From an uncultured Gaiellales bacterium (GTDB lineage: Bacteria; Actinomycetota; Thermoleophilia; RBG-16-64-13), in the NCBI GenBank assembly GCA_964497095.1, contig CAZCCL010000002.1, positions 10,492 through 62,277 on the forward strand: a DNA stretch of 51,786 bases. Direction: 5' to 3'. Below are positions 1,453-40,669 of the stretch, in pieces (the stretch's first letter is position 1; every line of letters begins with the position of its first letter). The translations under genes were made by a program, and so were the position numbers. The notes beneath the pieces were generated by a model. The model saw only the letters and a program-made list of their open reading frames with translations, ran no database searches and was not told the DNA's origin.

Positions 1453-1453
1453 T

Positions 1454-19362: not shown

Positions 19363-19499
19363 GATCGGGGCCGCGCGGCCCGAGCCCGGCGTGGTCGGGC
19401 ACGCCGTCACGTCTGGCCTCCGCCGCACCGGCGGTGTTAGGATTGGTACCTGATCCCCCCACCACCGACCAGGCGCTCAAGCGCACGGAGGACCGAAGT

Positions 19500-20294
19500 A
19501 TGCGTTTCATCGATGCCCACCTGCACACCGACATGATCGAAGACAAGCAGCTGCAGAAGCTGGTCATGATGGGCATGGAGGCGGCCATCGTCCCCAGCCC
19601 TCACATGTACCTGGGAAGCAAGGACGCGGACAGCGTCCTCCTCATGTGGGAGCGCTTCCTGGGCATGGAGACGACCACGGCCAAGACCCTGGGCTTCGAG
19701 CTCTTCACCTCACTCTCGGTGCCGTTTTTCGGAGTGAACCACGCCGACGCCGAGAAGTGTCTGGAGAGACTTCCCGACTTCCTCAAGGCCGAGCGGGCGG
19801 TGGCTCTGGGCGAGATAGGTCTGGACACCGGGACCGACTTCGAGCGGGAACTCTTCCGGGAGCACCTGAGGATCGCCAAAGCTCACGACCTGCCCGTCAT
19901 CCTCCATACCCCCATCCGCCTGGCTCCTCAAGGGGAGGCGGTGCTGCCGCAAGTACTCGAGATCATCGAAGAAGAGGGTTTCTCCCCGGAGAAGTGCGTA
20001 TTCGACCATGCCGGGGAAGCCACTCTCGACTGGCGCATGAAGACCGGCGGCATGGTAGGGCTCTCCGTGTGCTGGGACAAGATGCCCCCGGAACCGGCCG
20101 CCCAGTACGTCATCGACCACCCGGATCTGCGCGACCGCATCATCATCAACTCGGAACTGGGCGGTGAAGGCAACGACTACTTCATGGTCCCCCGGGTGAT
20201 CTTGGCCATGAAGCTCTTCGGACTCGACAAAGCCAGCATCGACAAGGTCTGCTACCAGAATCCCAAAGACTTCTTCGGGCTGCCGGTGGACTGA
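19500..20294 (+). CDS. TatD-related TIM-barrel metal-dependent hydrolase
   Basis: IDAHLH, GEIGLD, ILHTP, FDH, NSE and NP..FF motifs; start re-called at MRFID. Confidence 0.85.
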   Translation: MRFIDAHLHTDMIEDKQLQKLVMMGMEAAIVPSPHMYLGSKDADSVLLMWERFLGMETTTAKTLGFELFTSLSVPFFGVNHADAEKCLERLPDFLKAERAVALGEIGLDTGTDFERELFREHLRIAKAHDLPVILHTPIRLAPQGEAVLPQVLEIIEEEGFSPEKCVFDHAGEATLDWRMKTGGMVGLSVCWDKMPPEPAAQYVIDHPDLRDRIIINSELGGEGNDYFMVPRVILAMKLFGLDKASIDKVCYQNPKDFFGLPVD

Positions 20295-20336
20295 GGGCCG
20301 GTCCGGGCGTGACGGCGGCTCTACCCGGTAGGCGGT

Positions 20337-21137
20337 CTAGCCCGGCAGGATCGATCCGCACGAATTGCAGAATCGGGCGTCCTGCGTGTTGAGGGCCCCG
20401 CAATCGGCGCACCGTCGTGACGCTGCCGCCGGGGGGGCACCCGCTGCCGCCGGGGGGGCAGGCCGGGTATCTGCGTGCAGAGGGGGGCGGGCGACCGGCT
20501 CATCCGTGATGGGCGCGGGTTCCGTGGGACGCATCTCGGCCGCCGTGGGCTCCATAGGCGTGGGGACTGCTGGGGCCGGCGATACCGGAGAAGGCGCGGC
20601 TGCCTGCGCGCGCGGATGCATGGATTCCGCGGAAACGCTACCCGCGGCGACCGGGCTCGTCTGGACGGGAGCCGGCGGGACCACGCTCCTCCGCGCGGGA
20701 GTCGCGGAGGCCGGTGCCCCTGCCTGGGCGGCGGTTTCGCCCACCAGGAGGACCACCAACCCGTAGAGCGCCGCGACCGTGGGGATGAGCGCGATCACCG
20801 AGACCCAGCTGTGGAACACGGCCGCGGCCGCCACTTGGAACACGACCACGATTGCCAGCAACCAGATGATCGGCCCTTCACGGAACATCTTCCAGGAGGC
20901 GGCAAGCGAGATCAGCGCTGCAATAAAGGCGAATGAGTACTCGATAGCCGAGCCGGTGGTGGCCGAGGCGAAGCTGCTCCCCAGGCCCCCCAGACTGTTG
21001 GTGACCGCGGTGATGAGACCAAGCGCCCCCAGCACCCCTAAGAGCAGGAAGGCCATCCCCCCGACGGCGATCAGGTTCCCCAAGAGGGTGATGTAGAGGT
21101 AAAGGGGCCGCTCCGGGCCTGTAGACGGATCTTTCAT
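20337..21137 (-). CDS. Membrane protein with Pro/Ala-rich linker and C-terminal zinc ribbon
   Basis: About 4 TM, then a Pro/Ala linker and CADC...CNSCG; start re-called at MKDP. Confidence 0.75.
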   Translation of the reverse strand: MKDPSTGPERPLYLYITLLGNLIAVGGMAFLLLGVLGALGLITAVTNSLGGLGSSFASATTGSAIEYSFAFIAALISLAASWKMFREGPIIWLLAIVVVFQVAAAAVFHSWVSVIALIPTVAALYGLVVLLVGETAAQAGAPASATPARRSVVPPAPVQTSPVAAGSVSAESMHPRAQAAAPSPVSPAPAVPTPMEPTAAEMRPTEPAPITDEPVARPPLHADTRPAPPAAAGAPPAAASRRCADCGALNTQDARFCNSCGSILPG

Positions 21138-21290
21138 GGGCCCCTGCCGCTTCGGCCTTTGTATCGTCACGACAAAACCCATCTTAGCACCGGCCCCCAG
21201 CCGCGCAACGCCTCCGTCGCAGATTCGACGGTTTGCAAAAGCCGCCGAGGAAGATAAGAATAGAGCCAACCAAAATCCGGGGGTGGGCAA

Positions 21291-24116
21291 GTGTTCGGTC
21301 GGCTCTCTTTCGAAGGTCGGGACGGTGTCCAGGAACGTCAGCTCGACCAGCCGGTCATAAGCCTGGGGCGCGCTCCCGAGAACGACGTTTGTCTCGATCA
21401 CGCCACAGTCTCCCGCTTCCACGCTCGTATCCTCTCCGATACCCAAGGGAGCACCGTCATCGATTTGGGCAGCGGGAACGGCACGCGGGTGGATGGGGTG
21501 GAGCTTGAGGTCAAGGTCGAGAACCGACTAGCCAATGGCTCTGTCATCCAGATCGGGCCCTTCTCCATCCGTTACCACCGGGAGTCGGTGGCGCCCACCG
21601 TCGCCGCCGCCGTTCCGCCGCGCATCCTGCCGGAGCCCGTGGGCAAACTGGGCCAGACCGTCGTCATGGCTCCTCCCACTCCGGCCCGGTTGATCGTCAC
21701 TACTCCTCAGGGAGTCGGCGAATTCCGCTTGACCGGCGAATCGATGGCTCTGGGACGGGACCCGACGAACGACATCACGATCGATTCCGACGCCGTCTCC
21801 CGCCGCCATGCCCGCCTCGATAGGCGCGATTCAGGCTGGGAGATCACCGATCTGGGCAGCACGAACGGTCTTCGGTCTCAGGGCAGACCGGTCCAGAACA
21901 TGCCGCTGACGGACGGGGACGTGATCTACATCGGTCGCTCTGTCTGTCTGGAGTATCGCAGTCCGGAGCCTGCGGGCGCCGCGGCCCCGGCGGGCGCGGC
22001 GCCGCGCGCGGACACCTTCGATCTGCCCTCCAAGGGGGCGCTCGTCCTTGGTCGGAGCGAGAACGCCGACGTCACCATCTTCCATCCCCAGGTCTCCCGG
22101 GCGCACGCCCAGATCGTCCGGCGCGGCTCCGACCTCTACCTGGAGGACTTGGGCGGCGGCGCCGGCACCTACCTCAACGGCCAGATGGTCAAGGAGCATC
22201 TGCTGGGAGAGGGGGACGTGGTTCGCATAGGTTCCAGCCGCATGGTGCTGGAGCACGGACGCCTCAGGGTGGTCGACGAGGAGGGCAACCTGCGCATGGA
22301 CGCCTTCCATCTGAACCGGATAGTGGGCAAGGGACTGCGCATCTTGCAGGACGTCTCCCTCTCGATCTACCCGCAGGAGTTCGTGGCCATCGTGGGAGCC
22401 AGCGGGTCGGGGAAATCGACCCTGCTCAATGCCCTCTGCGGCTTTCGGCCGGCCAACACGGGGACGGTTCTGCTGAACGGGACCGACCTCTACCGGAACT
22501 TCAGCGCATACCGCAACGATCTGGGGTACGTGCCCCAGGACGACATCATCCACCGGGAACTCCCGGTCTTGCGTGCCCTCGATTATGCCGCCCAACTGCG
22601 GATGTCGGGTGACACGTCCTCTCAGGAGCGTCGGCAACGGGTGCAGGAGGTGCTCGAGGACCTCGACCTGCGCATGTGCGCCGACCGGGCGGTGCGCCAG
22701 CTGAGCGGCGGTCAGCGCAAGAGGGTGTCCATGGGAGTGGAGCTGCTCACCAAGCCCAGCCTGTTCTTCCTGGACGAGGCCACCTCCGGTCTCGATCCAG
22801 GCACCGAGTCGCAGATGATGAAGCTGCTTCGCCGGCTTGCCGACCAGGGCCGCACGGTAGCCCTCGTGACGCACGCCACCAAGAATGTGATGACCTGTGA
22901 CAAGGTCATCTTCATGGCCCGGGGCGGCCACTTGGCCTACTACGGTCCGCCGGAGGACGCCCTCCACTACTTCGGGGTGGACGACTTCGATGAGATATAC
23001 ACGCGGCTGGAGCAGGAGGAGCCGAAGGAGTGGGAAGGCCGTTTCCGGAGCTCAACAGCGTACCGCGAGAACGTGGAATCACGCCTCGCCGAGATGGGTC
23101 CGGCGTTCGCCCAGCAGGTAGGGTGGGCCGGCGCCGGGATGGCCATAGGGAGCGACGGGGCGTATGCCCCCACGTCCCCTGCTGGGTACGGACCCAGCCG
23201 GCTACCGCAGCGCGCCTCCAATCCACCCCGCCGGGTCTCGAACTGGAAGCAGTTCGTGGTGCTCTCCAAGCGCTATATGGACACCATATGGCGCGACAAG
23301 AAGACGGCGGCCCTGCTCTTCGCCATCGCCCCCTTCCTGGGAGTGCTGAACTTCGTCATCTGGAAGCGTGACGTCTTCGATCTCGAGACGGGTAGCGCGA
23401 CCCAGGCCGTCACCATGCTTTTCATGACCTCGATCATCACCATCCTGGTGGGTACCATCACCTCGGTCCGGGAGATAGTCAAGGAAGACGCCGTCTACCG
23501 ACGAGAGCGCATGGTAGGACTACGAGTCATGCCCTATGTGGGTTCGAAGGTGGCTATCGGGCTGATCTTCGCGGTCTGGAGCGCCGTCATGCTCTTCGCG
23601 TTCCTCATCGCCGCGGTCGATTTCTCCCACCTGAGCTTCGCGTCGACCATGCAGCTTTTGGTGCCCTTGGTGCTCGGCACGTTCGCCGGCGTGATGTGGG
23701 GCCTACTGGTCTCGGCAGTGGCGCCCAGCGAAGACCGGGCCATGTTGCTCGTGATACTGGTGCTGGTGCCGCAGTTCGTGTTCTCGGGAGGGATGATCCC
23801 CGTGTCGGATCTGGGGACGGCTGGGAAGATCATGGGGTGGATCACCTCCACCCGTTGGGAATTGGGAGCACTCGTCACTTCGGCTCAGGTCAAGAGCGGT
23901 CCCGGACAGGCGGCCGACCTTTCCGACGTCTACCTCCCCGGGATTCAGAGCCTAAACACACCAGGGGAGAAGCAGGCCTTGATCAACTCCCTGAACGACC
24001 AGTACGGCGATATCTTCAACGTGAATCTGGCCCTCTATTGGGGCATGTCCGCCGTCCTGGCGGCGGTGTTGCTCGCGATCATCATCGCGCTGCAGAAGCG
24101 TAAAGACACCCTGTGA
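21291..24116 (+). CDS. FHA-domain ABC transporter (3x FHA + ATPase + ABC-2 permease; Rv1747-like)
   Basis: Three GR...S+xH...(S/G)xNG-type FHA repeats; GASGSGKST, LSGGQRKR and FLDEATSGLD motifs; C-terminal TM permease. Confidence 0.93.
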   Translation: MFGRLSFEGRDGVQERQLDQPVISLGRAPENDVCLDHATVSRFHARILSDTQGSTVIDLGSGNGTRVDGVELEVKVENRLANGSVIQIGPFSIRYHRESVAPTVAAAVPPRILPEPVGKLGQTVVMAPPTPARLIVTTPQGVGEFRLTGESMALGRDPTNDITIDSDAVSRRHARLDRRDSGWEITDLGSTNGLRSQGRPVQNMPLTDGDVIYIGRSVCLEYRSPEPAGAAAPAGAAPRADTFDLPSKGALVLGRSENADVTIFHPQVSRAHAQIVRRGSDLYLEDLGGGAGTYLNGQMVKEHLLGEGDVVRIGSSRMVLEHGRLRVVDEEGNLRMDAFHLNRIVGKGLRILQDVSLSIYPQEFVAIVGASGSGKSTLLNALCGFRPANTGTVLLNGTDLYRNFSAYRNDLGYVPQDDIIHRELPVLRALDYAAQLRMSGDTSSQERRQRVQEVLEDLDLRMCADRAVRQLSGGQRKRVSMGVELLTKPSLFFLDEATSGLDPGTESQMMKLLRRLADQGRTVALVTHATKNVMTCDKVIFMARGGHLAYYGPPEDALHYFGVDDFDEIYTRLEQEEPKEWEGRFRSSTAYRENVESRLAEMGPAFAQQVGWAGAGMAIGSDGAYAPTSPAGYGPSRLPQRASNPPRRVSNWKQFVVLSKRYMDTIWRDKKTAALLFAIAPFLGVLNFVIWKRDVFDLETGSATQAVTMLFMTSIITILVGTITSVREIVKEDAVYRRERMVGLRVMPYVGSKVAIGLIFAVWSAVMLFAFLIAAVDFSHLSFASTMQLLVPLVLGTFAGVMWGLLVSAVAPSEDRAMLLVILVLVPQFVFSGGMIPVSDLGTAGKIMGWITSTRWELGALVTSAQVKSGPGQAADLSDVYLPGIQSLNTPGEKQALINSLNDQYGDIFNVNLALYWGMSAVLAAVLLAIIIALQKRKDTL

Positions 24117-24146
24117 CGGGTCATTCATGATGGACGAGCTCCGACG

Positions 24147-26453
24147 ATGGAAGACCTAGTAGGCAGCACTCTGGGCCGATACCAGGTGTCCGCGCTGGTG
24201 GGGCGGGGCGGCATGGCCGCCGTATACCGGGCGCTCGACCCGATCCTCAACCGGGCTGTAGCCGTCAAGGTCATGCATAGCCATTTGGCCGCCGACCCTA
24301 ACTTCGTCAGCCGCTTCCGGCACGAGGCTCAGGCGGTGGCTGCTCTCCGACACCCCAACATCGTCAAGGTGTTCGATTTCGGCAACGAGGGCGATTCCTA
24401 CTACATGGTCATGGAGTTCATCGACGGTCCCACCCTGGCGTCCCTCATGATGGCCGGGGCGACCGCCGGCGGCGCGAAAGCTCCGCTGCCTTCCGGCGAG
24501 GCTCCGGGCGGTCTCTCCACGGGCGAGATCCTGCGTCTGTTCCCGCCCCTGTGCTCGGCCATCGACTACGCCACCGCCCACGGCATGGTGCACCGTGACA
24601 TCAAACCGGCCAACATCCTGCTCACCTCGGAGGGGGAGCCCATCCTCACCGACTACGGCATCGCCAAGATCATGGGGGCCACGTCCTACACCGCCTCCGG
24701 GATGGTCCTGGGTTCGGCCCACTACATGTCGCCCGAGCAGGTACAGGGCTTCGCCGTCGACCACCGCTCGGACATCTACTCGTTGGGCGTGGTCCTCTTC
24801 GAGGCCTTGGCCGGCCGGGTCCCCTACGACGCCGATACCACTGCGTCCATCCTGGCCCAACATCTCTCCGCTCCCGTGCCCCCCGCCCGCTCCCTCAACC
24901 CCCAGTTGCCCGCAGAGATCCAAGCGGTGCTGGAGCGGGCGTTGGCCAAAGAGCCGGAGCGGCGCTACCAGCGGGCCGAGGACTTGGCTGCAGCCCTCCA
25001 GACCGCTCTCTCTCCTCCGCCGGTGACCGTCTACGAGACCGTCCCCGGTGCCGCCCCCGCTCCTGCCCTGGCCCCTACCGTGGTGGAGGCTCCCGGCATA
25101 GAGTTGGGGCAAAGCCCGGAGCCGGCCGCTACGGAAGCAGCGGGCGCGGCTCCTACCCGCGTGGAGCGGGTGGCGCCTACCCCAGATCTCGGGGCGCAGG
25201 CCGCTGGTGTGCAGGCCGTCGGGGCGCCGGCTCTCTGGGTGCACCCCAGTCCCGAGGCTCGCCCGGGGAAGAAGCGGTGGCGGTGGCTGCTGGCGGCAGG
25301 GGTGGTGGTGGTGGCGATCGTCGTGGTGGTCGCGGTGCTGGTCACCCGAGCGGACGAGCAGACCACGGAGTCCACCGTCACGACCACAGACGGAGGGCCG
25401 GTCTCGACGTCCACCGCCGGGTCCGGAGACGATTCGACGATCACGACGCTACCGGCGGAAGTGGCTCAAGTGATCGAGGAGGGTGTCGTCCTGGTCGAGA
25501 GCGGGGAGCTCGACGCAGGTATCGCTAAGTACGAGGAGGTGCTGCGCGAGCACCCGGACAGCGACTTGGGCCGCACCCGGTTGGGCATCGCCTACTACCT
25601 CCACGGGGACTACTCCCCCGAGATGACCGAACAACAGCTCAAGCTGGCCACCGAGAAGAACCCGGAGAACGCCGAAGCCTGGGCCTTCCTGGGCCTGGCT
25701 CGGCTGAGCGCAGCCTACAGTCGGAAGACCGGGGATTTCGCTTCAGCAGAAGAAGCCTGCCGTCAAGCCATAGAGCTGGATCCGCAAAGCGGTCTGGGCC
25801 ACGCCTTCCTAGGGCGGGTACTGGCCGCATCGGGTCGGCAGGAAGAAGCTTTGACGGAGATGCAGACTGCTCTGGACCTTGCCCCGCAGGGTCCCTGGGT
25901 GCAGGAGTCTGCCGGTTGGATCAACGCCGTGCACGACGACTGGGAGGCCGCCGTCCCGCATTACGATCTCGCGGCCACCTACAGACCCAACTGGGCCAGC
26001 TTCCTCAGTCTGCTCGGAGAGGCTCTGCGGGAGACCGGGCAGTACGATCAGGCCCTCGAATACTACGAGAAGGAGCTTCAGCTGGGCCAGGGGTACGAGG
26101 CCTCGGCCTATCAGGACATCGGGCTGACGCTGTGGGACAAGGGGGACTCCCCCGGGGCGATCGACAACCTCAAGAAATCGCTGACCCTCGACGAGAACGA
26201 CGACTACACGCACTGGGCCCTCGGAGCCATCTGGGACGAGCAGGAAGACTACGAGGCGGCTCTACCCCATCTCCAGCGCGCGGTAGCCCTGGTGCCGAAC
26301 AACGCGGGCTACCAGGAATGGCTGGGGGATTGCCTCTACTACCTGGGGCGCTATGAGGAGGCCAGGGTGGCCATCGACAAGTCCTTGGAACTCGACCCAG
26401 ACCGGGAGGGGGCGCAGCGGCTGTCGGGATACCTGGAAGAAGCGGGCTACTAG
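24147..26453 (+). CDS. Hanks-type Ser/Thr protein kinase with single TM and extracellular TPR domain
   Basis: GRGGMA, VAVK, HRDIKPANIL, DYG, YMSPEQ and DIYSLG motifs; TM (WRWLLAAGVVVV...); multiple TPR units. Confidence 0.94.
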   Translation: MEDLVGSTLGRYQVSALVGRGGMAAVYRALDPILNRAVAVKVMHSHLAADPNFVSRFRHEAQAVAALRHPNIVKVFDFGNEGDSYYMVMEFIDGPTLASLMMAGATAGGAKAPLPSGEAPGGLSTGEILRLFPPLCSAIDYATAHGMVHRDIKPANILLTSEGEPILTDYGIAKIMGATSYTASGMVLGSAHYMSPEQVQGFAVDHRSDIYSLGVVLFEALAGRVPYDADTTASILAQHLSAPVPPARSLNPQLPAEIQAVLERALAKEPERRYQRAEDLAAALQTALSPPPVTVYETVPGAAPAPALAPTVVEAPGIELGQSPEPAATEAAGAAPTRVERVAPTPDLGAQAAGVQAVGAPALWVHPSPEARPGKKRWRWLLAAGVVVVAIVVVVAVLVTRADEQTTESTVTTTDGGPVSTSTAGSGDDSTITTLPAEVAQVIEEGVVLVESGELDAGIAKYEEVLREHPDSDLGRTRLGIAYYLHGDYSPEMTEQQLKLATEKNPENAEAWAFLGLARLSAAYSRKTGDFASAEEACRQAIELDPQSGLGHAFLGRVLAASGRQEEALTEMQTALDLAPQGPWVQESAGWINAVHDDWEAAVPHYDLAATYRPNWASFLSLLGEALRETGQYDQALEYYEKELQLGQGYEASAYQDIGLTLWDKGDSPGAIDNLKKSLTLDENDDYTHWALGAIWDEQEDYEAALPHLQRAVALVPNNAGYQEWLGDCLYYLGRYEEARVAIDKSLELDPDREGAQRLSGYLEEAGY

Positions 26454-28276
26454 ACCGGCGACCGCGGATCCGGCCGGGCGGCGCCCCGCGCGCCCGGGCC
26501 GGCGGCCGCCTGATCGTCGCTCCGCCCGGCCATGCTCGCCATCCGGTCGACAAAGGACCTGTAGGTCTCCATCATGGCGTCGAAAGGCCTGTCGAACTCG
26601 ATGGTCGTGAAATGCCCGGCCGGCCGGCGCCGTAGCAGATCGAGCGGCAGCAGCCCGTCCCAGGAGTAGGCCAGTTGCGGGAAGGCCCCGCGGCCCACCA
26701 CGCGGATCGCCGTCACTCCCCGAGCCCCACACTCAGTGGCGAAATCGAGGAAGCGCCGGGTCAAGCCCTCGCTGGGCCTGCCCACGGCGACGCTCAAGGA
26801 CTGCAGGGAGCAGGCGGGGAGTAGGCCGAGATATTCCGTGGGCACCTCCATGAGGTCGTCCACCGGGCGCACGATCACGACGCGGCCTTGGCAATCGTTG
26901 ACCAAAGCGGCGAAGACCCTCGGGCTCAGACCGCGTCCGTCGGGGACCCTCTCATCCAGAATCACCACGAAGCGGTCGTCATAGTCCGAAAGCACCTGCA
27001 GACCGGTGCTCACTCCGCCCAAGCTCTCCATGGCCTTGTAGCGGTCGAAGCTGTCGTGAAGCTGGCGGAGGGGCCAAGCGCCCCGGGGAAGCACCTCGGA
27101 AAGCCGGCGCAACTGAGCGACAAGACGTTCGGTGTACTCGAGCGGAGCGGTGTCACCGTGCATCCTTCTCTCGACGAAGTGGATGCGGGAGGAAAGACAG
27201 CCGTTCTGGTCCCAGAAGGCCGAGTCGAGGCCGGCCAGGAGAGCGACGGCGGAGACCAGACCGCCCTCCCCCGAGGAGCTCATGCTCTGGTGATCCAGCT
27301 CGAACATCTCCCGGCCGATGGCCGAGAAGCTGACTTTGTGCCCGTGAGGGTGGAAGCGGACACGGGGCCGGTCTGTCATATCGCCCGCCCGCGAGATCTG
27401 CTCCGCTATGCGGGCGATGGTGTCATCTCCCGCTGCCGCGATGACGAGGCCCGACCAGCCCAGGAGACGCCTCTGCAGGGCCGCGTCGTCGTAGTCCCAC
27501 ACCAAGACGGCCACAGTGGAGACGAGTTCCTCGTCGGCCTCTTGCAGAGCCTGAAGGATCAAGGGACTGAAGATGGGTTCACGTCTCGAGTTGCGCACCA
27601 AGACTACCGGCGGGGCTCCACCGGACAGGGTGGTCGCGAGGGCGAGGAGGATGATGATGAGGGCGGTCCCCGGCACGTTGCCGGCTCCGTAGCCTGTGAC
27701 GAACCGAGGTGCCTCCGGGGCGGCGAAGATCGGGAGCCGGGAGTACAGCGGCACTTGGCCCGAAACCCCGGCGATCCCGGGCGCACGGGAAGGAAAGAAA
27801 CGCAGACGTCCGGGTAATCCGGGCAGAGGCCGCCAACCCGCCGCCGCTGCCTTGGTGGGGTTCAGGGCCAATGCGAGGGCCATCTGCTCGAGGTCCCAGA
27901 TCTCCGGAGCGGCCATGACGGAGCCGATCATGGCCTCGGAGTATCCTGTGTATCCCGGGATCATTTCCAGCGCTCGGCGGGCGGGGTTCCTCGGGTCGGC
28001 CAATCTTTGGGCGACCGCTCCCATCGCCATTCTCAGTCGATCCCAGAACTCCGGTCCGCGGGGGGCCCGCTCGCGGGCCGCCTCTAGGCCTTCGAGCACG
28101 GTCGCCCAGTCGGCTTCGGTGAATCGCGGCCAGCGGGCCCTGACGGCACCGGGCGTCCCCTCTTCACACTCAGCACCGCACTCGCGTCCGCCCGCGAAAC
28201 ATGCCTCCTCCCAGGACCGCCGGCCGGCGATGACCGAGCGGCGGACGGCCTTGGGGAGCCAGAAGCCCTCGCTCAC
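26450..28276 (-). CDS. LuxC-like acyl-CoA/acyl-protein reductase
   Basis: GAGNVP, IAAAGDDTI, HGHKVSF and catalytic-Cys motif DQNGCLS; C-terminal WDG..PL; GTG start overlaps the LuxE-like stop (GTGA). Confidence 0.8.
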   Translation of the reverse strand: MSEGFWLPKAVRRSVIAGRRSWEEACFAGGRECGAECEEGTPGAVRARWPRFTEADWATVLEGLEAARERAPRGPEFWDRLRMAMGAVAQRLADPRNPARRALEMIPGYTGYSEAMIGSVMAAPEIWDLEQMALALALNPTKAAAAGWRPLPGLPGRLRFFPSRAPGIAGVSGQVPLYSRLPIFAAPEAPRFVTGYGAGNVPGTALIIILLALATTLSGGAPPVVLVRNSRREPIFSPLILQALQEADEELVSTVAVLVWDYDDAALQRRLLGWSGLVIAAAGDDTIARIAEQISRAGDMTDRPRVRFHPHGHKVSFSAIGREMFELDHQSMSSSGEGGLVSAVALLAGLDSAFWDQNGCLSSRIHFVERRMHGDTAPLEYTERLVAQLRRLSEVLPRGAWPLRQLHDSFDRYKAMESLGGVSTGLQVLSDYDDRFVVILDERVPDGRGLSPRVFAALVNDCQGRVVIVRPVDDLMEVPTEYLGLLPACSLQSLSVAVGRPSEGLTRRFLDFATECGARGVTAIRVVGRGAFPQLAYSWDGLLPLDLLRRRPAGHFTTIEFDRPFDAMMETYRSFVDRMASMAGRSDDQAAAGPGARGAARPDPRSPV

Positions 28277-29727
28277 ACCTGCGCGGCGCATCCTGCTTCT
28301 CCCAGAAGGTCCACGCGCTGGATGGAGTCTTTCTCGAGATAGGCGCCGGCGTCTCCGCAAGGGCAGAGCATGTCACCGCGCCCGATCACCAGGGTGACCC
28401 GGTCCGCCGTGCGGAAGAAGCCTGGGAACAGGTCGCCGCCTCCGAACGGGTCGAAGAACGCCAGGAGCCCGGTCGCCCGAGGGCCCGATCGGATCTCGCC
28501 GTCATCATCTAGGACGCAAGCGTGGACCCAGGGCGGGACGTGGTAGTTTCCGGCGGAACACTGCATCGCGGCCCAGTTGGCCTCGGCCATGCCGTAGACG
28601 TCTCTCAGGGGCAAGGGGCTTCCGTCCGCCGGGCGGAAAGCACGCTCCAAGTCCCGTCTGATCTCGTCGAGTGAGAACGCATAGGTCTCCTTCATGCCTC
28701 CACCCGTGCCGAGAAGGCTACCCGGAGCCAGGAGGACCGTGCGGTCGGCGCGCACCAACGCCAGGGCTACCCCGTGGAGTTGGGTGGGACTGCCGAACAG
28801 GAGCAGCTTTTCGCCGTCACGGGCGGCGCGGTCGAGTCGGCCGAGGGCTACTTTGACGGCGCGCGGATCGACGTAGCGGGCCTGGATGGTGTTGATGGCC
28901 GGATGCCAGACCCGCCTCTCCACGAACCCGCGCCGGCCGGTCCGGAACGCTCTTCCAGCTCGGATGCGGACCTGGTCGGGATGAGCGGGGAAAGGTATGG
29001 CGAAATGCACCCGGTCGGAGGTCAGTCCTACCCGTTGCACGCTGAACCGGGCCATGCGGGCCATGGCGATCCGGGTGCGTTTCGGCATCATGAAGATGGC
29101 CCGGTGGTCGGCCTTCATTCCCAGGTAGCGCTGGAAGGACAGATAGAAGCTCTCCACGTTCAGGTCTGTGCTTCTCCGATCTCGCGCGATGATGGTGGCC
29201 CGACCCGAGGTGCCGCTCGAGGTGAGCAGTTCCAATCCGAAATCGGAGAACAAGTCTTCGACGGCCTGCAGCAGGGTCTCGAGAGACCTGTAGCTCGAAC
29301 CGAGCCCGCGAAGGCGGTCACGAGGAAGGTCCACGGAGAGCTGGTCCACGAGCCACTCTCCGAAACTGCGAGGCTCGTCTTGGGGGAAGGGGGTGCCGAG
29401 CAGCTCGATGTACGACTTGAAGGTCTGGGCCGTCGGCCGTAGCAGCCGGGACAGATCTGATGGCGCCGCCCGGGGGCCCACGCCCCGGGCGGCCACCGCG
29501 TTGCGATAGGCGGTATTACGCGCGTAGTGGTGGGAATGCGTGACCAGGATGCCGTTCAGCACGGCTTGGTCGCGCTCGACTTCCGTCGCTTCCCAGAAAC
29601 CGGCCAGCGTATCTGCGTTGAGGGTGGCATGTGCCACGGCTTCCTGCGCTCCCTCGAACAGCGGGCGGGATCGGTGCCCGACCTTGGACGATAGGACCGA
29701 CATCATCGTACCGCGAGGCGGGCTCAT
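28273..29727 (-). CDS. LuxE-like acyl-protein synthetase
   Basis: TSSGTSG P-loop, TGGGMK, RDVYGMAE, YHVPPW, FRTAD, CPCG and a C-terminal EAGC acyl-acceptor-like Cys. Confidence 0.82.
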   Translation of the reverse strand: MSPPRGTMMSVLSSKVGHRSRPLFEGAQEAVAHATLNADTLAGFWEATEVERDQAVLNGILVTHSHHYARNTAYRNAVAARGVGPRAAPSDLSRLLRPTAQTFKSYIELLGTPFPQDEPRSFGEWLVDQLSVDLPRDRLRGLGSSYRSLETLLQAVEDLFSDFGLELLTSSGTSGRATIIARDRRSTDLNVESFYLSFQRYLGMKADHRAIFMMPKRTRIAMARMARFSVQRVGLTSDRVHFAIPFPAHPDQVRIRAGRAFRTGRRGFVERRVWHPAINTIQARYVDPRAVKVALGRLDRAARDGEKLLLFGSPTQLHGVALALVRADRTVLLAPGSLLGTGGGMKETYAFSLDEIRRDLERAFRPADGSPLPLRDVYGMAEANWAAMQCSAGNYHVPPWVHACVLDDDGEIRSGPRATGLLAFFDPFGGGDLFPGFFRTADRVTLVIGRGDMLCPCGDAGAYLEKDSIQRVDLLGEAGCAAQV

Positions 29728-29751
29728 GTTGCGGGCTCAGGACCGCCGGGC

Positions 29752-30222
29752 CTACCCGACGTTCTCCGTCTGTCCGCCGCGCCGGGGAATGGGAGGAAGA
29801 TCACGCCCCTCGAGAGCGATGATCGCATCCCGGTATTCGGTCCTGAGCGGGACCCGCTCTCCAGCCATGTAGTCGTAGGAGACGATCAGGGTGTCCCCTT
29901 CAGCGGCCACTCTCCCCAGTGCTCGACTGCGGACCTCGTACTCCATGAAGAAGCGGTCTTCTCCGAGTGCCGAGACCCGTGCTCCTATCGAGAGGGTGTC
30001 CGGATAGGTCACCGGCGCTCTGTAGCGACACCTGTTCTCCCCCAATATGAAACCGTACTCCCAGAGATCCAACCGGGGCGGGATCACCCCGATGCGCTCC
30101 AAGTAGGCGATACGGACGATCTCGAAGTATTCGAAATAGGCGGTGTTGTTGACGTGGCCCAGAGCGTCCATGTCGGCCCAGCGCACCACCACGTCGACGA
30201 ACACCGGGAAGGGGCTCGGCAT
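29752..30222 (-). CDS. Hotdog-fold acyl-CoA thioesterase (4HBT/YbgC/FadM type)
   Basis: VRWADMDALGHVNNTAYFEYFE..R and YRAPVTYPD motifs. Confidence 0.92.
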   Translation of the reverse strand: MPSPFPVFVDVVVRWADMDALGHVNNTAYFEYFEIVRIAYLERIGVIPPRLDLWEYGFILGENRCRYRAPVTYPDTLSIGARVSALGEDRFFMEYEVRSRALGRVAAEGDTLIVSYDYMAGERVPLRTEYRDAIIALEGRDLPPIPRRGGQTENVG

Positions 30223-30293
30223 GATCTCTCCTCGACGAGGACTCGGGGATTTCCTGGCCGCATTGTAACCCCGAGGCGCCCGGCCTGCCTGTT

Positions 30294-30313
30294 TGATGTC
30301 TAAATGATATCAT
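30294..30313. promoter_or_regulatory. Putative RHH operator (TGATRTCW boxes) upstream of the SPFH operon
   Basis: TGATGTCT (30294) and TGATATCA (30305) are 11 bp apart; perfect palindrome ATGATATCAT in an AT-rich island. Confidence 0.5.
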
Positions 30314-30397
30314 GACAATATTATGCGGGCGGGGCCCGGCACGTTCTCATGGGCGGCAGCGGACCTGCCCCACGCTGGGGCGGGACAAGGAGGACAC

Positions 30398-31423
30398 ATG
30401 GAAGAAGTGCAGTTGCCACTCAATCACGAGCGAGAAGCCAGAGCTATGAGCGGCTGGGGGATGCTCGTGGCGGTGATCGTGATCTTCGTCGTCGGCATCG
30501 CCCTGCTGGTGACTGCCGCCGTAAATGGAAACGGGCTGAGTACCGGGGAGATCTGGGCTCTGGTGGGTCCGGGCATCGCCCTTCTGATTCTCGGCTCTTT
30601 CCTCAGTCCCGGCTTCTTCACCCTCGAGCCCAACGAGACCCGGGTCTTGGTGCTGTTCGGTGCCTACAAGGGCACCGTGCGCCAGGGCGGGTTCCGATGG
30701 GCCAACCCCTTCTACTCGAACGGTCCCACGGTCAAGACCACAGCCGACGGCCGGGGCGGCGAGGGAGCCGGCGGCGCTTCTGCCGGCGCCGGCAAGAAGG
30801 GCCAGCCCTCGCGGGCGCCTAAGAAGTTCCCGCGCTACAAGATCTCGGTGCGGGCCCGCACCCTCAACGGTCCCAAGCTGAAGGTCAACGACCGCCGCGG
30901 CAACCCGGTGGAGATCGCCACGGTGGTGGTCTGGCGGGTCAAGGACACCGCTCAAGCGGTGTTCGATGTCGAGGACTTCGAGCTCTACGTGGAGACGCAG
31001 AGCGAGACCGCCCTCAGGCACCTGGCCAGCTCGTATGCGTACGACCATGGAGAAGAGCACGAGATCACCCTGCGTAGCAACGTGGACGAGGTGTCGCAGG
31101 CGCTCAAGGACGAGCTGGGGCGAAGACTCGCCCGCGCCGGGGTGGTGGTCGAGGAGGCCCGTCTTACCCATCTGGCCTACGCGCCCGAGATCGCCCAGGC
31201 CATGCTGCGCCGGCAACAGGCCGAAGCGATCATCGACGCCCGCCAGAAGATCGTGCACGGGGCGGTGAGCATGGTCGACATGGCCCTCCGCGAACTGGCC
31301 GAGAAGAGCGTGATAGACCTCGATGACGAGCGCAAGGCGGCCATGATCAGCAACCTGATGGTCGTACTGTGCGGCGAATCCGAGGTGCACCCCGTGGTGA
31401 ACGCCGGGACCCTGTACCAGTAG
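30398..31423 (+). CDS. SPFH/band-7 domain membrane protein
   Basis: Two N-terminal TMs, [42 protein letters not shown] and VVNAGTLY motifs; GGAGG RBS. Confidence 0.93.
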
Positions 31424-31510
31424 GCCTGAGGCGATGTCGATCGCGATCAGGTTTCTCGTGAGGGTGGAGCGGGCACAAAAAGGCGATCCAACCCGTCGGA
31501 GCGCGGGCTG

Positions 31511-31708
31511 ATGGCCGAGCGGAAGCAGTTCTTGCTGCGCATCGATCCCGGATTGTGGGCCGATCTGGAGTCTTGGGCCGCAGATGAGCTCCGCAGCGTC
31601 AACGGGCAGATCGAGTACGTACTCCGAGAAGCGGTGCGCGCGCGCAAAGGTAGCCACGAGAAAGGACCTGAGGATGAGAGACCCTCGGCTGGACAGGCTC
31701 GCCGATAA
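31511..31708 (+). CDS. Small Arc-like ribbon-helix-helix DNA-binding protein
   Basis: [28 protein letters not shown]; this small protein typically follows this SPFH subfamily. Confidence 0.85.
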
Positions 31709-32780
31709 CCTGCTCGACTATTCACTCGAGCTGCGACCGGGCGAGAAGGTTGGCATCGATGGAGAGACCGGTGCCCGAGACCTGATGGTCGCCCTGGTCG
31801 AGGCGGCCTATCGGCGGGGCGCCGTGCCGTTCGTAGAGGTGGGCGATGCCAAACTGCGGCGGGCCTGGCTGCTGGGCGCCACGCGCGAGCAACTGGATCT
31901 CCGGGCATCGTGGGAGCTCAAGAAGTTCAAGGACCTCGACGCCAGTCTGTACATCCTCGCGGGTGACAACGCCTCGGAGTTGGCCGATGTGCCTCCGGGA
32001 GTCCTGGAGGCCTCTCGGTTGGCCAACGAACCGCTCATGGAGGTGGTCCTAGCCAAAAAGTGGTGTCTGCTCCGATTCCCCACGCCCGCGGCCGCCCAGG
32101 CGGCGGGGATGTCCACCGAAGCTTTCGAGGATTTCTGCCTGGACGTCTCCAGCCTCGACTACGCCCGCATGGACCAAGCCATGGACCCCTTGGTAGACCT
32201 GATGGAGCGCACGGATAGGGTGCGGATCGTCGCGCCCGAGACCGAGCTTTCCTTCTCGATCAAGGGTGTCCCGGTCATCAAGGCGGCCGGTAAGAACAAC
32301 ATCCCCGACGGAGAGGTGTTCACGGCCCCGGTGCGGGACTCGGTGGAGGGCGTCATCTTCTTCAACACCCCGTCTCTCGAGGACGGTACGACCTACGAGC
32401 GAGTACGCTTGACCTTCGAGGAGGGGCTGGTCGTGGAAGCCGATTGCGGCGAACCGGAGAAGATCCGGCAGGTCCTCGACACCGATGCAGGCGCTCGGTA
32501 CGTGGGCGAGTTCGCCCTCGGCGTGAATCCACGCATCGACCGTCCCATGAAGGACACGCTCTACGATGAGAAGATCGGCGGCAGCCTGCATATCGCTCTG
32601 GGACGAGCCTACGAAGAGGCCGACAACGGAAACCGCTCGAGCGTCCATTGGGACCTCGTACTGATACAGACGCGCCAGTGGGGCGGAGGCCAGATCTACT
32701 TCGATGACGTTCTGATCCGCCGGGACGGTCGCTTCGTGCTCCCGGAACTGCAGGGGCTCAACCCCGAGAACCTCGTCTGA
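31674..32780 (+). CDS. M29-family aminopeptidase (AmpS/PepS-like)
   Basis: MRDPR start, [27 protein letters not shown] and SSVHWD motifs. Confidence 0.93.
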
Positions 32781-32830
32781 ACGTTCCCACCGGGGAGAAG
32801 GCGGACGCCTCGAGCAGGGGAAGGAGAAAG

Positions 32831-33274
32831 CTGGAGCGCTACGATGCGATCATAATCGGTAGCGGTCAGGCCGGTGTTCCCCTTGCCCGTGATCTCGCCG
32901 AGGCCGGTTTTAAGACCGCCCTGATCGAAGGTACACGTCGGCGGTATCTGCCACAACGAGGGCTGTACTCCCACCAAGACGATGGGGGCCAGCGCCCGAG
33001 TGGCCTATCCGGCACGAAGGGCCGGCGATTACGGGATCACCGCCGGTCCGGTCACCGTCGACATGCACGCTCTAAGCTCCCCGGGTCTTCGTAAACACCG
33101 GAGCCCGACCGGGCGCATCCTTGGGGCCGCCGTGTTGGGCGTCAACGGAGGGGGCTGGCGGCGCTCATCGAGGTGGCCATGCTGGGTGTTCTCACCGCCG
33201 GCGAGCTACACGATGCAGTCTTCGCCCACCCGACCCTAGCCGAATCCTTGAAGAATCTCTTCGCAGCCAACTAA
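32831..33274 (+). pseudogene. Pseudogene of a mercuric-reductase-like pyridine nucleotide-disulfide oxidoreductase
   Basis: [15 protein letters not shown] motif, a frameshift, [13 protein letters not shown] redox motif, a large internal deletion, then ILGAAVLG, a frameshift, and FAHPTLAE...LF; RBS AAGGAG retained but no normal start codon. Confidence 0.88.
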
Positions 33275-34647
33275 GTCATCTTAGGGCGTCTTGGGGGCGC
33301 GGGAGCGGACGGTTGTCCGCCTTCCGTGCCCTGCTCTCTGACCGTCTCGTCCGATCCCTCCGATCCCGGAGTAGGCAGTTGGTCGGATGCCTTTCCCGCC
33401 CGCCGATAGAGTGGCACGGAGACGAGGTATATCACTCCGCCCACGGTATAGGCGACCGCCTTTGAGGCGACCTGGGCCCCGTAGCCCAGCCCGACTTGCC
33501 CGACCACGGCACCTATGTCGGAGAAGAAGGAGTCGAAGGACAAGACAGTGGCCCGCTGGGCGGAAGGGATGTATTCGTTGATGTAGGCCTGCCTTACGGG
33601 CCTCAGTATGCCGTCCAGCAGACCGAACCCCGCCAGGAACACCACCATCAACACGAAAGCCGCGATGCTTGCCCCGCCGGATATCAAGCCGGTGACGCCC
33701 AGACCGATAGCGCCCAGTGCCATGCCCGCCGACGTCCAAACGAGCACGGTGGCTGATCGGCTTCCAAGTCTGGAACTGGTGATGCGCCCCACCATGGTGT
33801 TGCCGGCGACCCCGGACAGTGCAAAGAGCCCCGTGATGGCTCCGGCCACCCAGACAAGGTTCTCCCTCCCCAGTAGCTCCAGAGCATACGGCTGCGAAGC
33901 GTAGAACAAGTACCAGGTAAGAAGCCCGCTAACCGAAGATGTGAAGAGAAGCGGTCTGACCACTGGGTGACGCCAGCCGTAAGTGATGCCTGCCTGAAAT
34001 ATCTTGCGGCTTTCATCGCCGAAGCGCGAGATCTTGAGCGGCCGCGGAGTGAACCCTATGTCGCGCATGAAGACCAAGGTGATCGCAAACGCAAACACCA
34101 GTAGTCCCGTGCGGACCAGGTAGGGGAAGGCCAGATTGACTTGACCGAGGAAGCCACCTCCCAAGGTGCCGATCAGCATGGCTACGCCTATAAAGATGCC
34201 GCTACGGGCGAACACCCGGTCCTTCTTGCCCACGTACCCGGTCGCATCGAGGGCGTCCACCATCCAGGCATCGACCGCGCCTGTCTGGCAGGTGAAGCCG
34301 AACCCTAACAGGATCGAGAACAGGATGAATCCGGCAAGTCCCCAGTCGAACACGGAAGAGCCCACGTAGCCGAGGGTTGCGACGGCGAGTGCCGCGATCC
34401 CGATGAGGAACGACGCCCTGCGGCCGATGGTGTCGGCGATGACCCCAGTGGGCACCTCGAACACTATCTGGCCCGCGCTGAAGGTCGCGTTGACCACCAT
34501 CACCGTGAATATGTTGAGGCCCGCGTCGAGCAGGAACAGGGTGTTGACGCCCCATATGATCGAGGCGGAGAGGGTGAAGAGAGCGTTCAAGGTGTAGTAC
34601 GTACGCTCGATGCGAACGGGGGTTATCTCAACTGCGGGAGGATTCAT
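33271..34647 (-). CDS. MFS transporter
   Basis: FEVPTGVIADTIGRR, TGAVDAW and IPSAQRATVLSF motifs; about 12 TM. Confidence 0.9.
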   Translation of the reverse strand: MNPPAVEITPVRIERTYYTLNALFTLSASIIWGVNTLFLLDAGLNIFTVMVVNATFSAGQIVFEVPTGVIADTIGRRASFLIGIAALAVATLGYVGSSVFDWGLAGFILFSILLGFGFTCQTGAVDAWMVDALDATGYVGKKDRVFARSGIFIGVAMLIGTLGGGFLGQVNLAFPYLVRTGLLVFAFAITLVFMRDIGFTPRPLKISRFGDESRKIFQAGITYGWRHPVVRPLLFTSSVSGLLTWYLFYASQPYALELLGRENLVWVAGAITGLFALSGVAGNTMVGRITSSRLGSRSATVLVWTSAGMALGAIGLGVTGLISGGASIAAFVLMVVFLAGFGLLDGILRPVRQAYINEYIPSAQRATVLSFDSFFSDIGAVVGQVGLGYGAQVASKAVAYTVGGVIYLVSVPLYRRAGKASDQLPTPGSEGSDETVREQGTEGGQPSAPAPPRRPKMT

Positions 34648-37970: not shown

Positions 37971-37984
37971 CCGAGGCGCCTTGC

Positions 37985-40476: not shown

Positions 40477-40669
40477 GGCAGTAGCTCCCCTCTGTGGTCT
40501 ATCTAGTCTGCCTACCCCGGACACGGCAGTCCGCAAACCCCTCGGCCTTTGGCGCGACTCCTTAGGCGCGGCCATTTCGGCGCGGTCACCTTGGTGCGGT
40601 CACTTGGGCGCGACACGTTCGGCGGGGTTCGGATCGGCACGGACAGAGACCCCGCGGCCAGGCATCCTC

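Follow-up and report, generated by a model that had tools for sequence, protein, structure and literature searches.

LuxE–LuxC, without its neighbouring thioesterase, is the conserved unit of an uncharacterised branch of the LuxC/LuxE system in Actinomycetota and Chloroflexota

The closest described relative of the locus considered here is the LuxC–LuxE pair of the lux operon, known structurally from Photobacterium phosphoreum (PDB 7XC6; PMC9157457). In the portion of that report drawn on here, LuxE (PpLuxE) carries a cysteine tail in place of its C-terminal subdomain, the residues of note being Lys238, Arg355 and Cys364, and the canonical enzyme resembles PaaK. Non-luminous use of luxE–luxC is already in print (PMC7874193; see also PMC4875605): luciferase-free homologues of both genes lie in the flagellin-glycosylation islands of Aeromonas and Enterobacteriaceae. 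Another point of reference is TabE, presented in the available part of a preprint (bioRxiv 10.1101/2025.08.11.669332) as a stand-alone LuxC-like reductase of the tambjamine BE-18591 pathway in Streptomyces. The neighbours of our locus call to mind the pknF-Rv1747 operon of Mycobacterium tuberculosis, for which excerpts of PMC3138270 and PMC5549992 discuss possible glycolipid export; in the latter, Rv1747 is a proposed mover of envelope glycolipids. A literature search covering main texts rather than supplements found no paper on the present LuxE/LuxC clade or on a link between LuxE–LuxC and FHA-domain ABC (FHA-ABC) exporters.

The window, that is, the whole stretch of DNA that was analysed, comprises 51,786 nt from an uncultured Gaiellales bacterium, whose genome assembly (G000; 2.78 Mb in 195 contigs, 94.6% complete) was searched alongside it. 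The features of the locus are collected in Table 1. We conclude that the locus is an uncharacterised branch of the known LuxC/LuxE system.

Table 1. Genes and intergenic region of the LuxE–LuxC locus, in window coordinates.
Feature	Coordinates	Strand	Remarks
Hotdog (4HBT_2) thioesterase	29752-30222	-	156 aa; first of the co-oriented trio
LuxE-like acyl-protein synthetase (predicted)	28273-29727	-	484 aa as called; PaaK-type adenylating N-domain and C-terminal Cys tail
LuxC-like acyl-thioester reductase (activity predicted), ALDH fold	26450-28291	-	613 aa from ATG 28291; 608 aa from GTG 28276
Ser/Thr protein kinase with C-terminal TPR domain	24147-26453	+	Pkinase 4.2e-42 and TPR families
FHA-domain ABC exporter with ABC-2 membrane domain	21291-24116 (provisional start codon)	+	FHA 9.2e-55 (3 stretches), ABC_tran, ABC2_membrane
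AT-rich divergent intergenic region, thioesterase / SPFH gene	30223-30322	.	Read from sequence

An earlier note on this DNA had described the thioesterase, luxE and luxC as three co-oriented genes. All of them do lie on the minus strand, and the 24-nt gap between the thioesterase and luxE is confirmed. The note also placed the start of luxC in a GTGA overlap with luxE, giving 608 aa, and this start is probably wrong. An ATG at 28291, 15 nt further upstream, is preceded by the Shine-Dalgarno-like GGGAGAAG, and the 613-aa protein that it opens agrees with database entry P0001 and with the N-termini of homologues (MRRAGV...). If translation begins at this ATG, as is probable, luxC and luxE would overlap by 19 nt. 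At its other end, luxC meets the convergent kinase gene, the two gene ends overlapping by 4 nt. The AT-rich intergenic region is likely to be the promoter region of a thioesterase–luxE–luxC transcript. A scan with the sigma-70 consensus, which is uninformative for a high-GC host such as this one, found no promoter site there; over 26000-30700, it returned a single promoter-like site and a single terminator-like site, each of them on the plus strand and no more than in shuffled sequences, and no terminator-like site between the thioesterase and luxE.

The best profile matches of the pair are the LuxE and LuxC families, both above the Pfam gathering scores, as the earlier note had expected. The LuxE-like protein scores 38.9 bits against PF04443 (cut-off 24.9), over profile positions 199-384 of 391 only. 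Its sole sequence match in the PDB, by phmmer, is the LuxE chain 7xc6_E (E 8.7e-6), in an alignment where the TSSGTSG motifs of the two proteins coincide and tgggmk falls opposite tgggwk. Its key positions are T169-G175 (TSSGTSG), K346 (GGGMK), R471, D473 and C480, the last within a C-terminal end that reads ...GEAGCAAQV. That TSSGTSG and the C-terminal GC are intact, as had been claimed, holds for the relatives too: among 35 family members, TSSGTSG is found in 34, GGGxK in 31, and a tail of the form R-x-D-L-x-x-E-x-G-C-A-x-Q-x, with cysteine fifth from the end, in 33. For the AF2 model (pLDDT 82.2), PaaK-family aryl- and small-acid CoA ligases (PDB 2Y27, 2Y4O, 4RVN, 6HE0; Z ~26 over ~314 residues) give the best structural matches, and 7xc6_E is not among the matches listed by Foldseek or VIA-align. 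The likeness is confined to one domain, since model residues 41-475 align solely with residues 7-331 of PaaK1, its N-domain (Z 26.1). Judged from the model, the ANL C-terminal subdomain, which forms the CoA thioester in the ligases, is missing from the LuxE-like protein, and the cysteine tail stands in its place.

The LuxC-like protein matches PF05893 at 99.3 bits (cut-off 21), over profile positions 95-400 of 401, and has no match in NCBIfam. Confidence in its AF2 model is moderate (pLDDT 70.7). The best Foldseek match of this model is LuxC itself, 7xc6_A (E 5e-17 over 568 columns; query-normalised TM 0.52, target-normalised TM 0.65), with other aldehyde dehydrogenases behind it at ~1e-11. 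Identity to LuxC is ~15%, and neither phmmer with the protein nor hmmsearch with the 14-sequence family profile A1 found a LuxC or ALDH match among solved structures. The candidate catalytic cysteine lies in FWDQNGC, as Cys360 in the 608-aa numbering or Cys365 in the 613-aa numbering; this loop presumably resembles the ALDH catalytic loop. Because sequence similarity is too low for phmmer or the profile to reach 7xc6_A, this residue is equated with LuxC Cys296 (Cys286 in the older numbering) only provisionally, on the fold match and the ALDH-like motif. The DQNGC motif pointed out earlier is indeed intact, and its cysteine is kept in 104 of the 113 database homologues that carry the WDQ motif. 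By family profile and fold, then, this protein is an acyl-thioester reductase, its activity being a prediction.

How does the pair compare with the described systems? With lux LuxC–LuxE, it shares, as far as the consulted part of PMC9157457 goes, the combination of an adenylating enzyme without the ANL C-terminal subdomain, a cysteine tail, and an ALDH-fold reductase (here with a candidate active-site cysteine), together with TSSGTSG and GGGxK. It differs in several respects. Both proteins are longer than the luminous enzymes, as the earlier note had remarked, by ~110-135 aa: 484 aa against 373 aa for LuxE, and 608 or 613 aa against 477 aa for LuxC, taking the solved Photobacterium chains. The tail reads RxDLxxExGCAxQx, whereas that of lux LuxE reads TRxxKGCxLS, and the LuxE-like protein reaches 34.2 bits against NF052244, the NCBIfam equivalog for lux-operon LuxE, below its cut-off of 550. 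In the branch described here, the order is E then C, with the genes adjacent and often overlapping, and the hosts are Chloroflexota and Actinomycetota. The genome has no luxA, luxB or luxD match of the kind expected of a luxCDABE operon: the luciferase-like monooxygenase family PF00296 and the LuxD family PF02273 each gave 0 matches in the 94.6% complete assembly, which extends to the whole genome what had been claimed for the window as regards luxA, luxB and luxD. The flagellin-glycosylation islands, compared by description from parts of the papers cited above, resemble the locus in having luciferase-free luxE–luxC among genes for a product that is exported or displayed at the surface; they contain, however, an ACP, a 3-oxoacyl-ACP reductase, an AMP-dependent synthetase and glycosyltransferases, which the window locus lacks. 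TabE, again compared by description in the part of the preprint available, is likewise an ALDH-like, cysteine-dependent thioester-to-aldehyde reductase in an actinomycete secondary-metabolite setting, with a thioesterase, TabJ, alongside. It has no LuxE partner there, uses acyl-ACP and acyl-CoA substrates and prefers NADH, whereas in the present branch LuxE is always there.

The unit that is conserved is LuxE–LuxC, not thioesterase–LuxE–LuxC. Our survey took in 45 related loci of the phyla Chloroflexota and Actinomycetota, 28 of them Chloroflexota-labelled, with neighbouring genes traced by tblastn and clustering. In 43 of these loci luxE immediately precedes luxC, and the other two have no upstream DNA. 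The three-gene synteny that the earlier note proposed to look for is thus found in part: the luxE–luxC portion stands, but the thioesterase accompanies it in only 15 of the 45 loci and in none of the 28 from Chloroflexota. The clade counts >370 database proteins, its hosts being Anaerolineae from sludge and sediment and Actinomycetota from soil and marsh. Two DNA sequencing runs contain at least half of the query's words, both labelled salt marsh metagenome, and no RNA run is among those listed as matching. Judged by its sequences, the pair is genuine and apparently active.

We propose that the core of the locus is a two-enzyme carboxylic-acid reductase with a role other than light, next to which the thioesterase is a non-essential neighbour; we put the probability of this reading at roughly two in three, its chemistry, cofactor and substrate being predictions. 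It is favoured because both proteins belong to the LuxE and LuxC families by profile and fold, the residues needed are conserved, E and C are adjacent in that order, and luciferase and LuxD matches are absent. With TSSGTSG and Lys346, the LuxE-like enzyme would activate a free acid by adenylation; it would then transfer the acyl group to its own Cys480, in the flexible C-terminal tail. The tail would hand the acyl group to the FWDQNGC-loop cysteine of the LuxC-like enzyme, which would reduce the thioester to the aldehyde with NAD(P)H. The earlier suggestion of an acid-to-aldehyde system put to non-luminous use survives in this form, with an intact LuxE–LuxC pair and no luciferase match; what finds no support is the thioesterase as its integral third part.

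What, then, surrounds the pair? An FHA-ABC exporter, often together with a Ser/Thr kinase, is a partner that recurs across both phyla. The ABC membrane domain adjoins LuxE–LuxC in the window and in 11 of the 45 loci, with at least four different gene arrangements, and no match to it occurs within 6 kb in the other 34. ABC and luxE genes overlap by 1-4 nt in L036, L038, L039 and L042, with translational coupling in about four to five Anaerolineae loci. Two further loci, L022 and L046, had appeared to be FHA-ABC-positive and were dropped when the membrane domain alone served as the query. In the window's genome, the exporter membrane domain is single-copy and the kinase gene is one of five kinase-domain matches. 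Among 40 relatives, eight have both LuxC and the ABC exporter, two LuxC alone and two the exporter alone, counts that overstate the association because related genomes are not independent; the two genes lie within ~7 kb of each other in seven of the eight. Five Anaerolineae genomes whose LuxE–LuxC loci lack an adjacent FHA-ABC gene have homologues elsewhere (1-5 matches per genome), and therefore adjacency is not universal. Kinase genes flank 12 of the 45 loci; for Chloroflexota, they are near 8 of 28, compared with roughly 2-6% expected from 7-22 kinases per genome.

The Pfam architecture of the exporter unites FHA, NBD and ABC-2 membrane domains in one protein beside a Ser/Thr kinase gene. 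Compared by architecture, this is the arrangement of PknF-Rv1747, with its N-terminal FHA; the window's exporter has three FHA stretches, and no link of Rv1747 to LuxE or LuxC is reported in the parts of PMC3138270 and PMC5549992 used here. By analogy with this architecture, and given that the exporter recurs, an envelope or exported product may be envisaged: the aldehyde or a derivative would, at lower confidence than the chemistry itself, be built into the envelope or exported as a secreted lipid-like product under phospho-signalling control. We advance the link of exporter and kinase to LuxE–LuxC tentatively, at somewhat less than even odds. In some Anaerolineae loci, a B12-radical-SAM gene belongs to the same operon; the best matches of such neighbours, weak ones, are hopanoid and lipid methylases. 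It is tempting to suppose that LuxE–LuxC and the FHA-ABC exporter, often with the kinase and here and there the B12-radical-SAM enzyme, might form an undescribed make-and-export module. Such a module would turn a lipid-like acid into an aldehyde, send the aldehyde or a derivative (alcohol, ether, methylated lipid) to the envelope under a phosphothreonine switch, and would have passed as a unit between Chloroflexota and a single Actinomycetota family; in full, this picture is speculative and we doubt it.

The same LuxE/LuxC chemistry could instead serve for a carboxylate other than a fatty acid, for example a small, hydroxy, branched or aromatic one, or part of a cofactor. The product would then be a metabolite or a signal, not a lipid. 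The structures nearest to the LuxE-like model would suit this, being PaaK, 2-hydroxyisobutyryl-CoA ligase and aryl-acid ligases. However, canonical LuxE is itself PaaK-like (PMC9157457, in the part cited), and for that reason the fold tells little about the substrate. A divergent KARI-like reductase just upstream in 7 of the 45 loci (188-202 bits against an ilvC cut-off of 226) points the same way as the model, as does the lack of any fatty-acid synthesis or carrier-protein gene in the flanks scanned. On the other hand, ABC-2/ABCG-type exporters and B12-radical-SAM neighbours suit lipid-like products at least equally, and Rfam offers no riboswitch clue to the substrate, with no match at E <= 0.1 in window positions 18000-34000 and none at the gathering score in 10 related loci. 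We regard a non-fatty substrate as rather unlikely. In the window's genome, the wax-ester synthase family PF03007, looked for as a clue to the further fate of the aldehyde, had no match, a negative that carries no information since the control likewise matched nowhere; PF07993 gave three generic matches.

According to the earlier note, the hotdog thioesterase may have replaced LuxD and completed a three-part pathway. In such a pathway, it would release a particular acyl chain from CoA or ACP, to be activated by LuxE and reduced by LuxC. The arrangement in the window is consistent with this: the thioesterase heads the co-oriented trio with its own Shine-Dalgarno sequence (GAGGAGA, ahead of the ATG), and only the 24-nt gap, with no terminator-like site, separates it from luxE. 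Of the 15 loci with a thioesterase, nine have it abutting luxE (by overlap or < ~90 nt), and it is present in 8 of 10 LuxC-positive relatives. Against this stands its distribution, since all 15 loci fall within the window's Actinomycetota clade, a single starred clade of the tree, whose basal member, L025, lacks the gene. Moreover, orthologues at 49-54% identity are kept in six relatives without a LuxC match. In two of these, G007 and G013, the thioesterase adjoins SPFH and M29. G007 retains the whole TatD ... thioesterase-SPFH-M29-MFS backbone, with Nramp and Usp in the place that is taken, in the window, by a variable block of Zn-ribbon protein, FHA-ABC exporter, Ser/Thr kinase, LuxC and LuxE. 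In the remaining 6 of the 15 loci, a spacer of 0.45-0.7 kb parts the thioesterase from luxE, and four of these spacers hold a GNAT-like ORF. The protein itself is a clear member of 4HBT_2 (87.5 bits, cut-off 25.5) but scores 47.8 bits against TIGR00051 (YbgC/FadM), below the subfamily cut-off of 68.7, and its closest solved chains, 2cye and 5byu, are uncharacterised thioesterases without a known substrate.

Confined to one clade and persisting beside SPFH and M29 where the LuxE–LuxC block is absent, the thioesterase therefore looks like a backbone gene rather than a dedicated substitute for LuxD. The LuxE–LuxC pathway probably does not include it as an integral third component, and a dedicated three-component pathway is unlikely. 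Its co-transcription with luxE–luxC is nevertheless probable in this genome; given the short gap and the lack of a visible terminator, it may well act with the pair here, and may supply it with free acid, without the pair depending on it.

That LuxE and LuxC are a regulatory or scaffolding pair of pseudo-enzymes, connected with the signalling genes (kinase or FHA) found near many loci, is very improbable. A sub-clade of relatives with open frames does lack the LuxC cysteine (L007, L017, L024, L027, L046, as well as 9 of the 113 database homologues), the LuxE lysine (L022, L024, L027, L046) or both, but the window's copies and their nearest relatives (L004-L006, L018, L019, L029) keep all catalytic signatures, which are invariant in the 18-sequence alignment A2.

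For annotators, the correction that follows from the two-enzyme reading is that the conserved unit is LuxE–LuxC, without the thioesterase. LuxC/LuxE-type reductases turn free acids into aldehydes without CoA, which makes them useful for producing fatty aldehydes, alcohols and alkanes and for autonomous lux reporters, and the present clade is built somewhat differently from the lux enzymes, with longer proteins and another tail motif. Identifying the acid would give a function to the widespread annotation “acyl-CoA reductase”. If the link to the exporter and kinase is true, the pair would also provide a biochemical handle on the cargo of FHA-ABC (Rv1747-type) exporters.

The three co-oriented ORFs described in the earlier note are present at 26450-30222, on the minus strand, and thioesterase and luxE are separated by the 24 nt that it gave. 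The GTGA overlap of luxE and luxC is likewise present, although the LuxC-like protein of 608 aa read from it probably has a better start at the ATG at 28291; this codon is preceded by GGGAGAAG and yields 613 aa, in agreement with the database entry and the N-termini of homologues. The thioesterase scores under the cut-off of the YbgC/FadM subfamily profile. The window is C2:10492-62277 of a genome of 2.78 Mb (195 contigs, 94.6% complete), whose closest relatives carry the labels uncultured Actinomycetes or Actinomycetota.

Features of the window and of related LuxE-LuxC loci (L handles)
Feature	Position	Strand	Remark
Hotdog thioesterase, 156 aa	29752-30222	-	Pfam 4HBT_2, 87.5 bits
LuxE-like, 484 aa	28273-29727	-	PF04443, 38.9 bits (cut-off 24.9)
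LuxC-like (ATG start)	26450-28291	-	PF05893, 99.3 bits (cut-off 21)
Ser/Thr kinase with TPR repeats	24147-26453	+	convergent with luxC
Exporter FHA(x3)-NBD-ABC-2	21291-24116	+	beyond convergent luxC end
Zinc-ribbon ORF, 369 aa	20337-21446	-	divergent from exporter ORF
9.4-kb block	20337-29727		Zn-ribbon protein, FHA-ABC, kinase, LuxC, LuxE
Thioesterase/SPFH intergenic region	30223-30322		AT-rich
Opp/Dpp-type peptide ABC importer operon	35592-40575		fused double ATPase (851 aa), permease, family-5 binding protein; unrelated to LuxEC
P-type ATPase	40670-43204	-	after importer operon; unrelated to LuxEC
B12-binding radical-SAM gene	L042:7586-9643		
S8 subtilase, C-terminal FHA domain	L010:7828-10224		convergent with luxC
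S8 subtilase, C-terminal FHA domain	L021:7723-10137		convergent with luxC
KARI-like gene	L008:3511-4521		
KARI-like gene	L013:3424-4437		
KARI-like gene	L020:3579-4478		
KARI-like gene	L030:3437-4480		
KARI-like gene	L044:3491-4504		
KARI-like gene	L033:435-1469		
KARI-like gene	L035:1236-2273		
1074-aa in-frame ORF	L027:4546-7770		LuxE-like, linker, LuxC-like

Both the LuxE-like and the LuxC-like protein score above the Pfam LuxE and LuxC cut-offs, and the motifs said to be intact (TSSGTSG, the tail C480 and FWDQNGC) are all there. The sole sequence match of the LuxE-like protein in the PDB is the LuxE of the Photobacterium LuxC-LuxE complex 7XC6; in the alignment TSSGTSG lies opposite TSSGTSG, and GGGMK (its lysine being K346) opposite GGGWK. 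The account in PMC9157457 names Lys238, Arg355 and the tail Cys364 as working residues of LuxE, and describes an enzyme without the ANL C-terminal subdomain, in whose place stands a short Cys-bearing tail. The AF2 model of the LuxE-like protein (pLDDT 82.2) matches, over residues 41-475, the N-domain only of PaaK-type ligases (residues 7-331, Z ~26), and its C-terminus reads R471-V-D473-LLGEAG-C480-AAQV. Its N-terminus (residues 1-40) is disordered. Among 35 family members drawn from the loci, TSSGTSG is found in 34, the GGGxK lysine in 31 and the tail cysteine, fifth from the end, in 33.

PDB sequence searches with the LuxC-like protein gave no match. Its AF2 model (pLDDT 70.7) has as best Foldseek match the LuxC chain 7xc6_A (E 5e-17, 568 columns), with ordinary aldehyde dehydrogenases at ~1e-11, and the candidate catalytic cysteine of FWDQNGC is retained in 104 of the 113 homologues with the WDQ motif (120 homologues listed, 7 outside the pattern). 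Both proteins are thus members of these Pfam families, and they appear equipped for the Lux mechanism. They stand far from the lux-operon enzymes: the LuxE-like protein scores 34 bits on the NCBI LuxE equivalog, whose cut-off is 550. A single LuxE locus and a single strong LuxC locus were found in the genome, and the reported lack of luxA, luxB and luxD in the window extends to this 94.6%-complete genome, which gave no match to the luciferase-like monooxygenase or LuxD families.

A word-indexed search returned at least 370 homologues of the LuxC-like protein, most of them unnamed or called "acyl-CoA reductase" and from Anaerolineae or Chloroflexota, and scanning a single genome for each species gave 45 loci (28 Chloroflexota, 16 Actinomycetota and 1 unlabelled). 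In 43 of these luxE lies immediately 5′ of luxC, the remaining two having less than 200 nt of upstream DNA; the genes overlap or stand within ~25 nt in most loci, the spacing reaching ~270 nt in one Anaerolineae clade. A maximum-likelihood tree of 36 LuxC sequences, its root unplaced, groups the window with nine Actinomycetota rows (support 98/98) among Chloroflexota branches; L025 is the basal member of this clade, and the long-branch L041 falls outside it. Within a sample of 40 relatives, LuxC-like proteins occur in 10 genomes, all from the window's own family (10/24), whereas the 16 that represent other families in the class have none.

One sub-clade (L007, L017, L022, L024, L027 and L046; proteins P0015, P0016, P0022, P0024, P0029, P0044, P0060, P0095 and P0109) keeps open LuxE and LuxC frames but lacks catalytic residues: S, R, G or A stands in place of the LuxC cysteine, the lysine of the LuxE GGGxK motif has been lost, or both. 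These loci, which tend to have a GNAT-like insert between thioesterase and luxE, may represent a pseudo-enzyme lineage. The long ORF of L027 joins a LuxE-like part without the Cys tail to a LuxC-like part through a Gly/Ala-rich linker, and may be either a true fusion or an artefact of assembly; frameshifts occur in several loci of its MAG series (L017, L018, L029 and L046-L048).

The thioesterase was found in 15 of the 45 loci and in none of the 28 labelled Chloroflexota, nor is there a match in L025, despite ~4.5 kb of locus upstream of luxE. Of the 40 relatives, 14 have an orthologue of it, and six of these 14 (G007, G008, G010, G011, G013 and G021) have no LuxC match, while G022 and G024 are LuxC-positive without a thioesterase match. 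The G007 locus reads TatD - Nramp - Usp - thioesterase(-) - SPFH(+) - M29 - MFS, so that the flanking genes are those of the window and Nramp and Usp replace the 9.4-kb block; the G013 locus reads M1 - thioesterase - ... - SPFH - M29. In addition, 6 of the 15 loci with the thioesterase have a spacer of 0.45-0.7 kb between it and luxE, with a GNAT-like ORF inside in four of the six (confirmed by Pfam for L046). Given this distribution, these layouts and the spacers, the thioesterase-luxE-luxC synteny that the earlier note asked to be surveyed in relatives breaks down outside the immediate clade: of the three-gene interpretation the LuxE/LuxC pair is supported and the integral thioesterase is not, the latter appearing to belong to the locus backbone, independently of the pair. 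In the window the thioesterase is the first gene of the trio and has a Shine-Dalgarno sequence of its own, and a scan found no terminator between it and luxE; co-transcription, and opportunistic use of the thioesterase with the pair, are plausible in this genome. On its other side, a near-palindromic ATAATATTGTCATGATATCAT stretch resembles an operator or promoter that the divergent thioesterase and SPFH genes would share.

The window's genome has one copy of the exporter membrane domain and five kinase-domain matches. With the membrane domain alone as query, an orthologous exporter was found in the flanks of 11 of the 45 loci, in several arrangements. In L004, L005 and L006, as in the window, the exporter gene is followed by the kinase gene and both converge on luxC, whereas in L009 the exporter gene itself is the one that converges on luxC. 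L025 has a divergent exporter gene 5′ of luxE, and L045 has the order exporter, kinase, luxE. In L036, L038, L039 and L042 the exporter gene overlaps luxE by 1-4 nt, a group that L043 resembles, its contig being cut where the exporter gene ends. Kinase genes flank 12 of the 45 loci, including 8 of the 28 from Chloroflexota, where ~2-6% would be expected by chance, as estimated from genomes of 3.2-5.7 Mb with 7-22 kinases each. Among the 40 relatives, 8 have both LuxC and exporter, 2 LuxC alone, 2 the exporter alone and 28 neither, and in 7 of the 8 both lie on one contig, at most ~7 kb apart. Because these counts are not independent phylogenetically, and because 34 of the 45 loci have no exporter within 6 kb, we regard the link of LuxEC to the FHA-ABC exporter and kinase as a supported lead rather than a fact.

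In the Anaerolineae clade of L036, L038, L039, L042 and L043, a B12-radical-SAM gene comes after luxC; its best matches, all weak, are to BchE and to HpnR and HpnJ, both hopanoid methylases. Next comes the gene of a single-pass membrane protein of 243 aa that matched no family. In L042 this operon, from the exporter gene to that of the 243-aa protein, covers 551-9643. Two further Anaerolineae loci have the FHA-bearing subtilase, and in Candidatus Amarolinea (G042:C46) three consecutive Ser/Thr kinase genes precede luxE. In the window, the zinc-ribbon ORF (the domain is C-terminal), part of the block absent from G007, overlaps the called 5′ end of the exporter, so that the true exporter start is probably downstream of 21291.

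What, then, is the substrate? A LuxE/LuxC-type reductase acting on a non-fatty substrate is a serious rival. No Rfam elements, riboswitches included, were found in the window region and 10 related loci, the scanned flanks showed no gene for a carrier protein or for fatty-acid synthesis, and a divergent gene resembling ketol-acid reductoisomerase (KARI), under all ilvC equivalog cut-offs, lies 5′ of luxE in 7 Chloroflexota loci; it is for these reasons that the rival is kept. The KARI-like gene adjoins luxE or the kinase preceding it, and 4 of the 7 loci have a phosphoribosyltransferase gene next to it in divergent orientation.

Luciferase-free luxE/luxC pairs as such are already known: one is reported from Aeromonas flagellin-glycosylation islands (PMC7874193), and TabE is published as a stand-alone LuxC-like reductase (bioRxiv 2025.08.11.669332). 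Compared by domain layout alone, the window's kinase and FHA-ABC share the architecture described for mycobacterial pknF-Rv1747, where Rv1747 is presented as positively regulated by phosphorylation and as a proposed mover of envelope glycolipids (PMC3138270; PMC5549992). In the literature searched we found no description of a LuxEC association with FHA-ABC and kinase genes. The conserved unit is the LuxE-LuxC pair and not the trio, recurring beside FHA-ABC exporters and kinases, and the window represents a deep and uncharacterised clade, whose proteins are longer and whose tail motif is its own.
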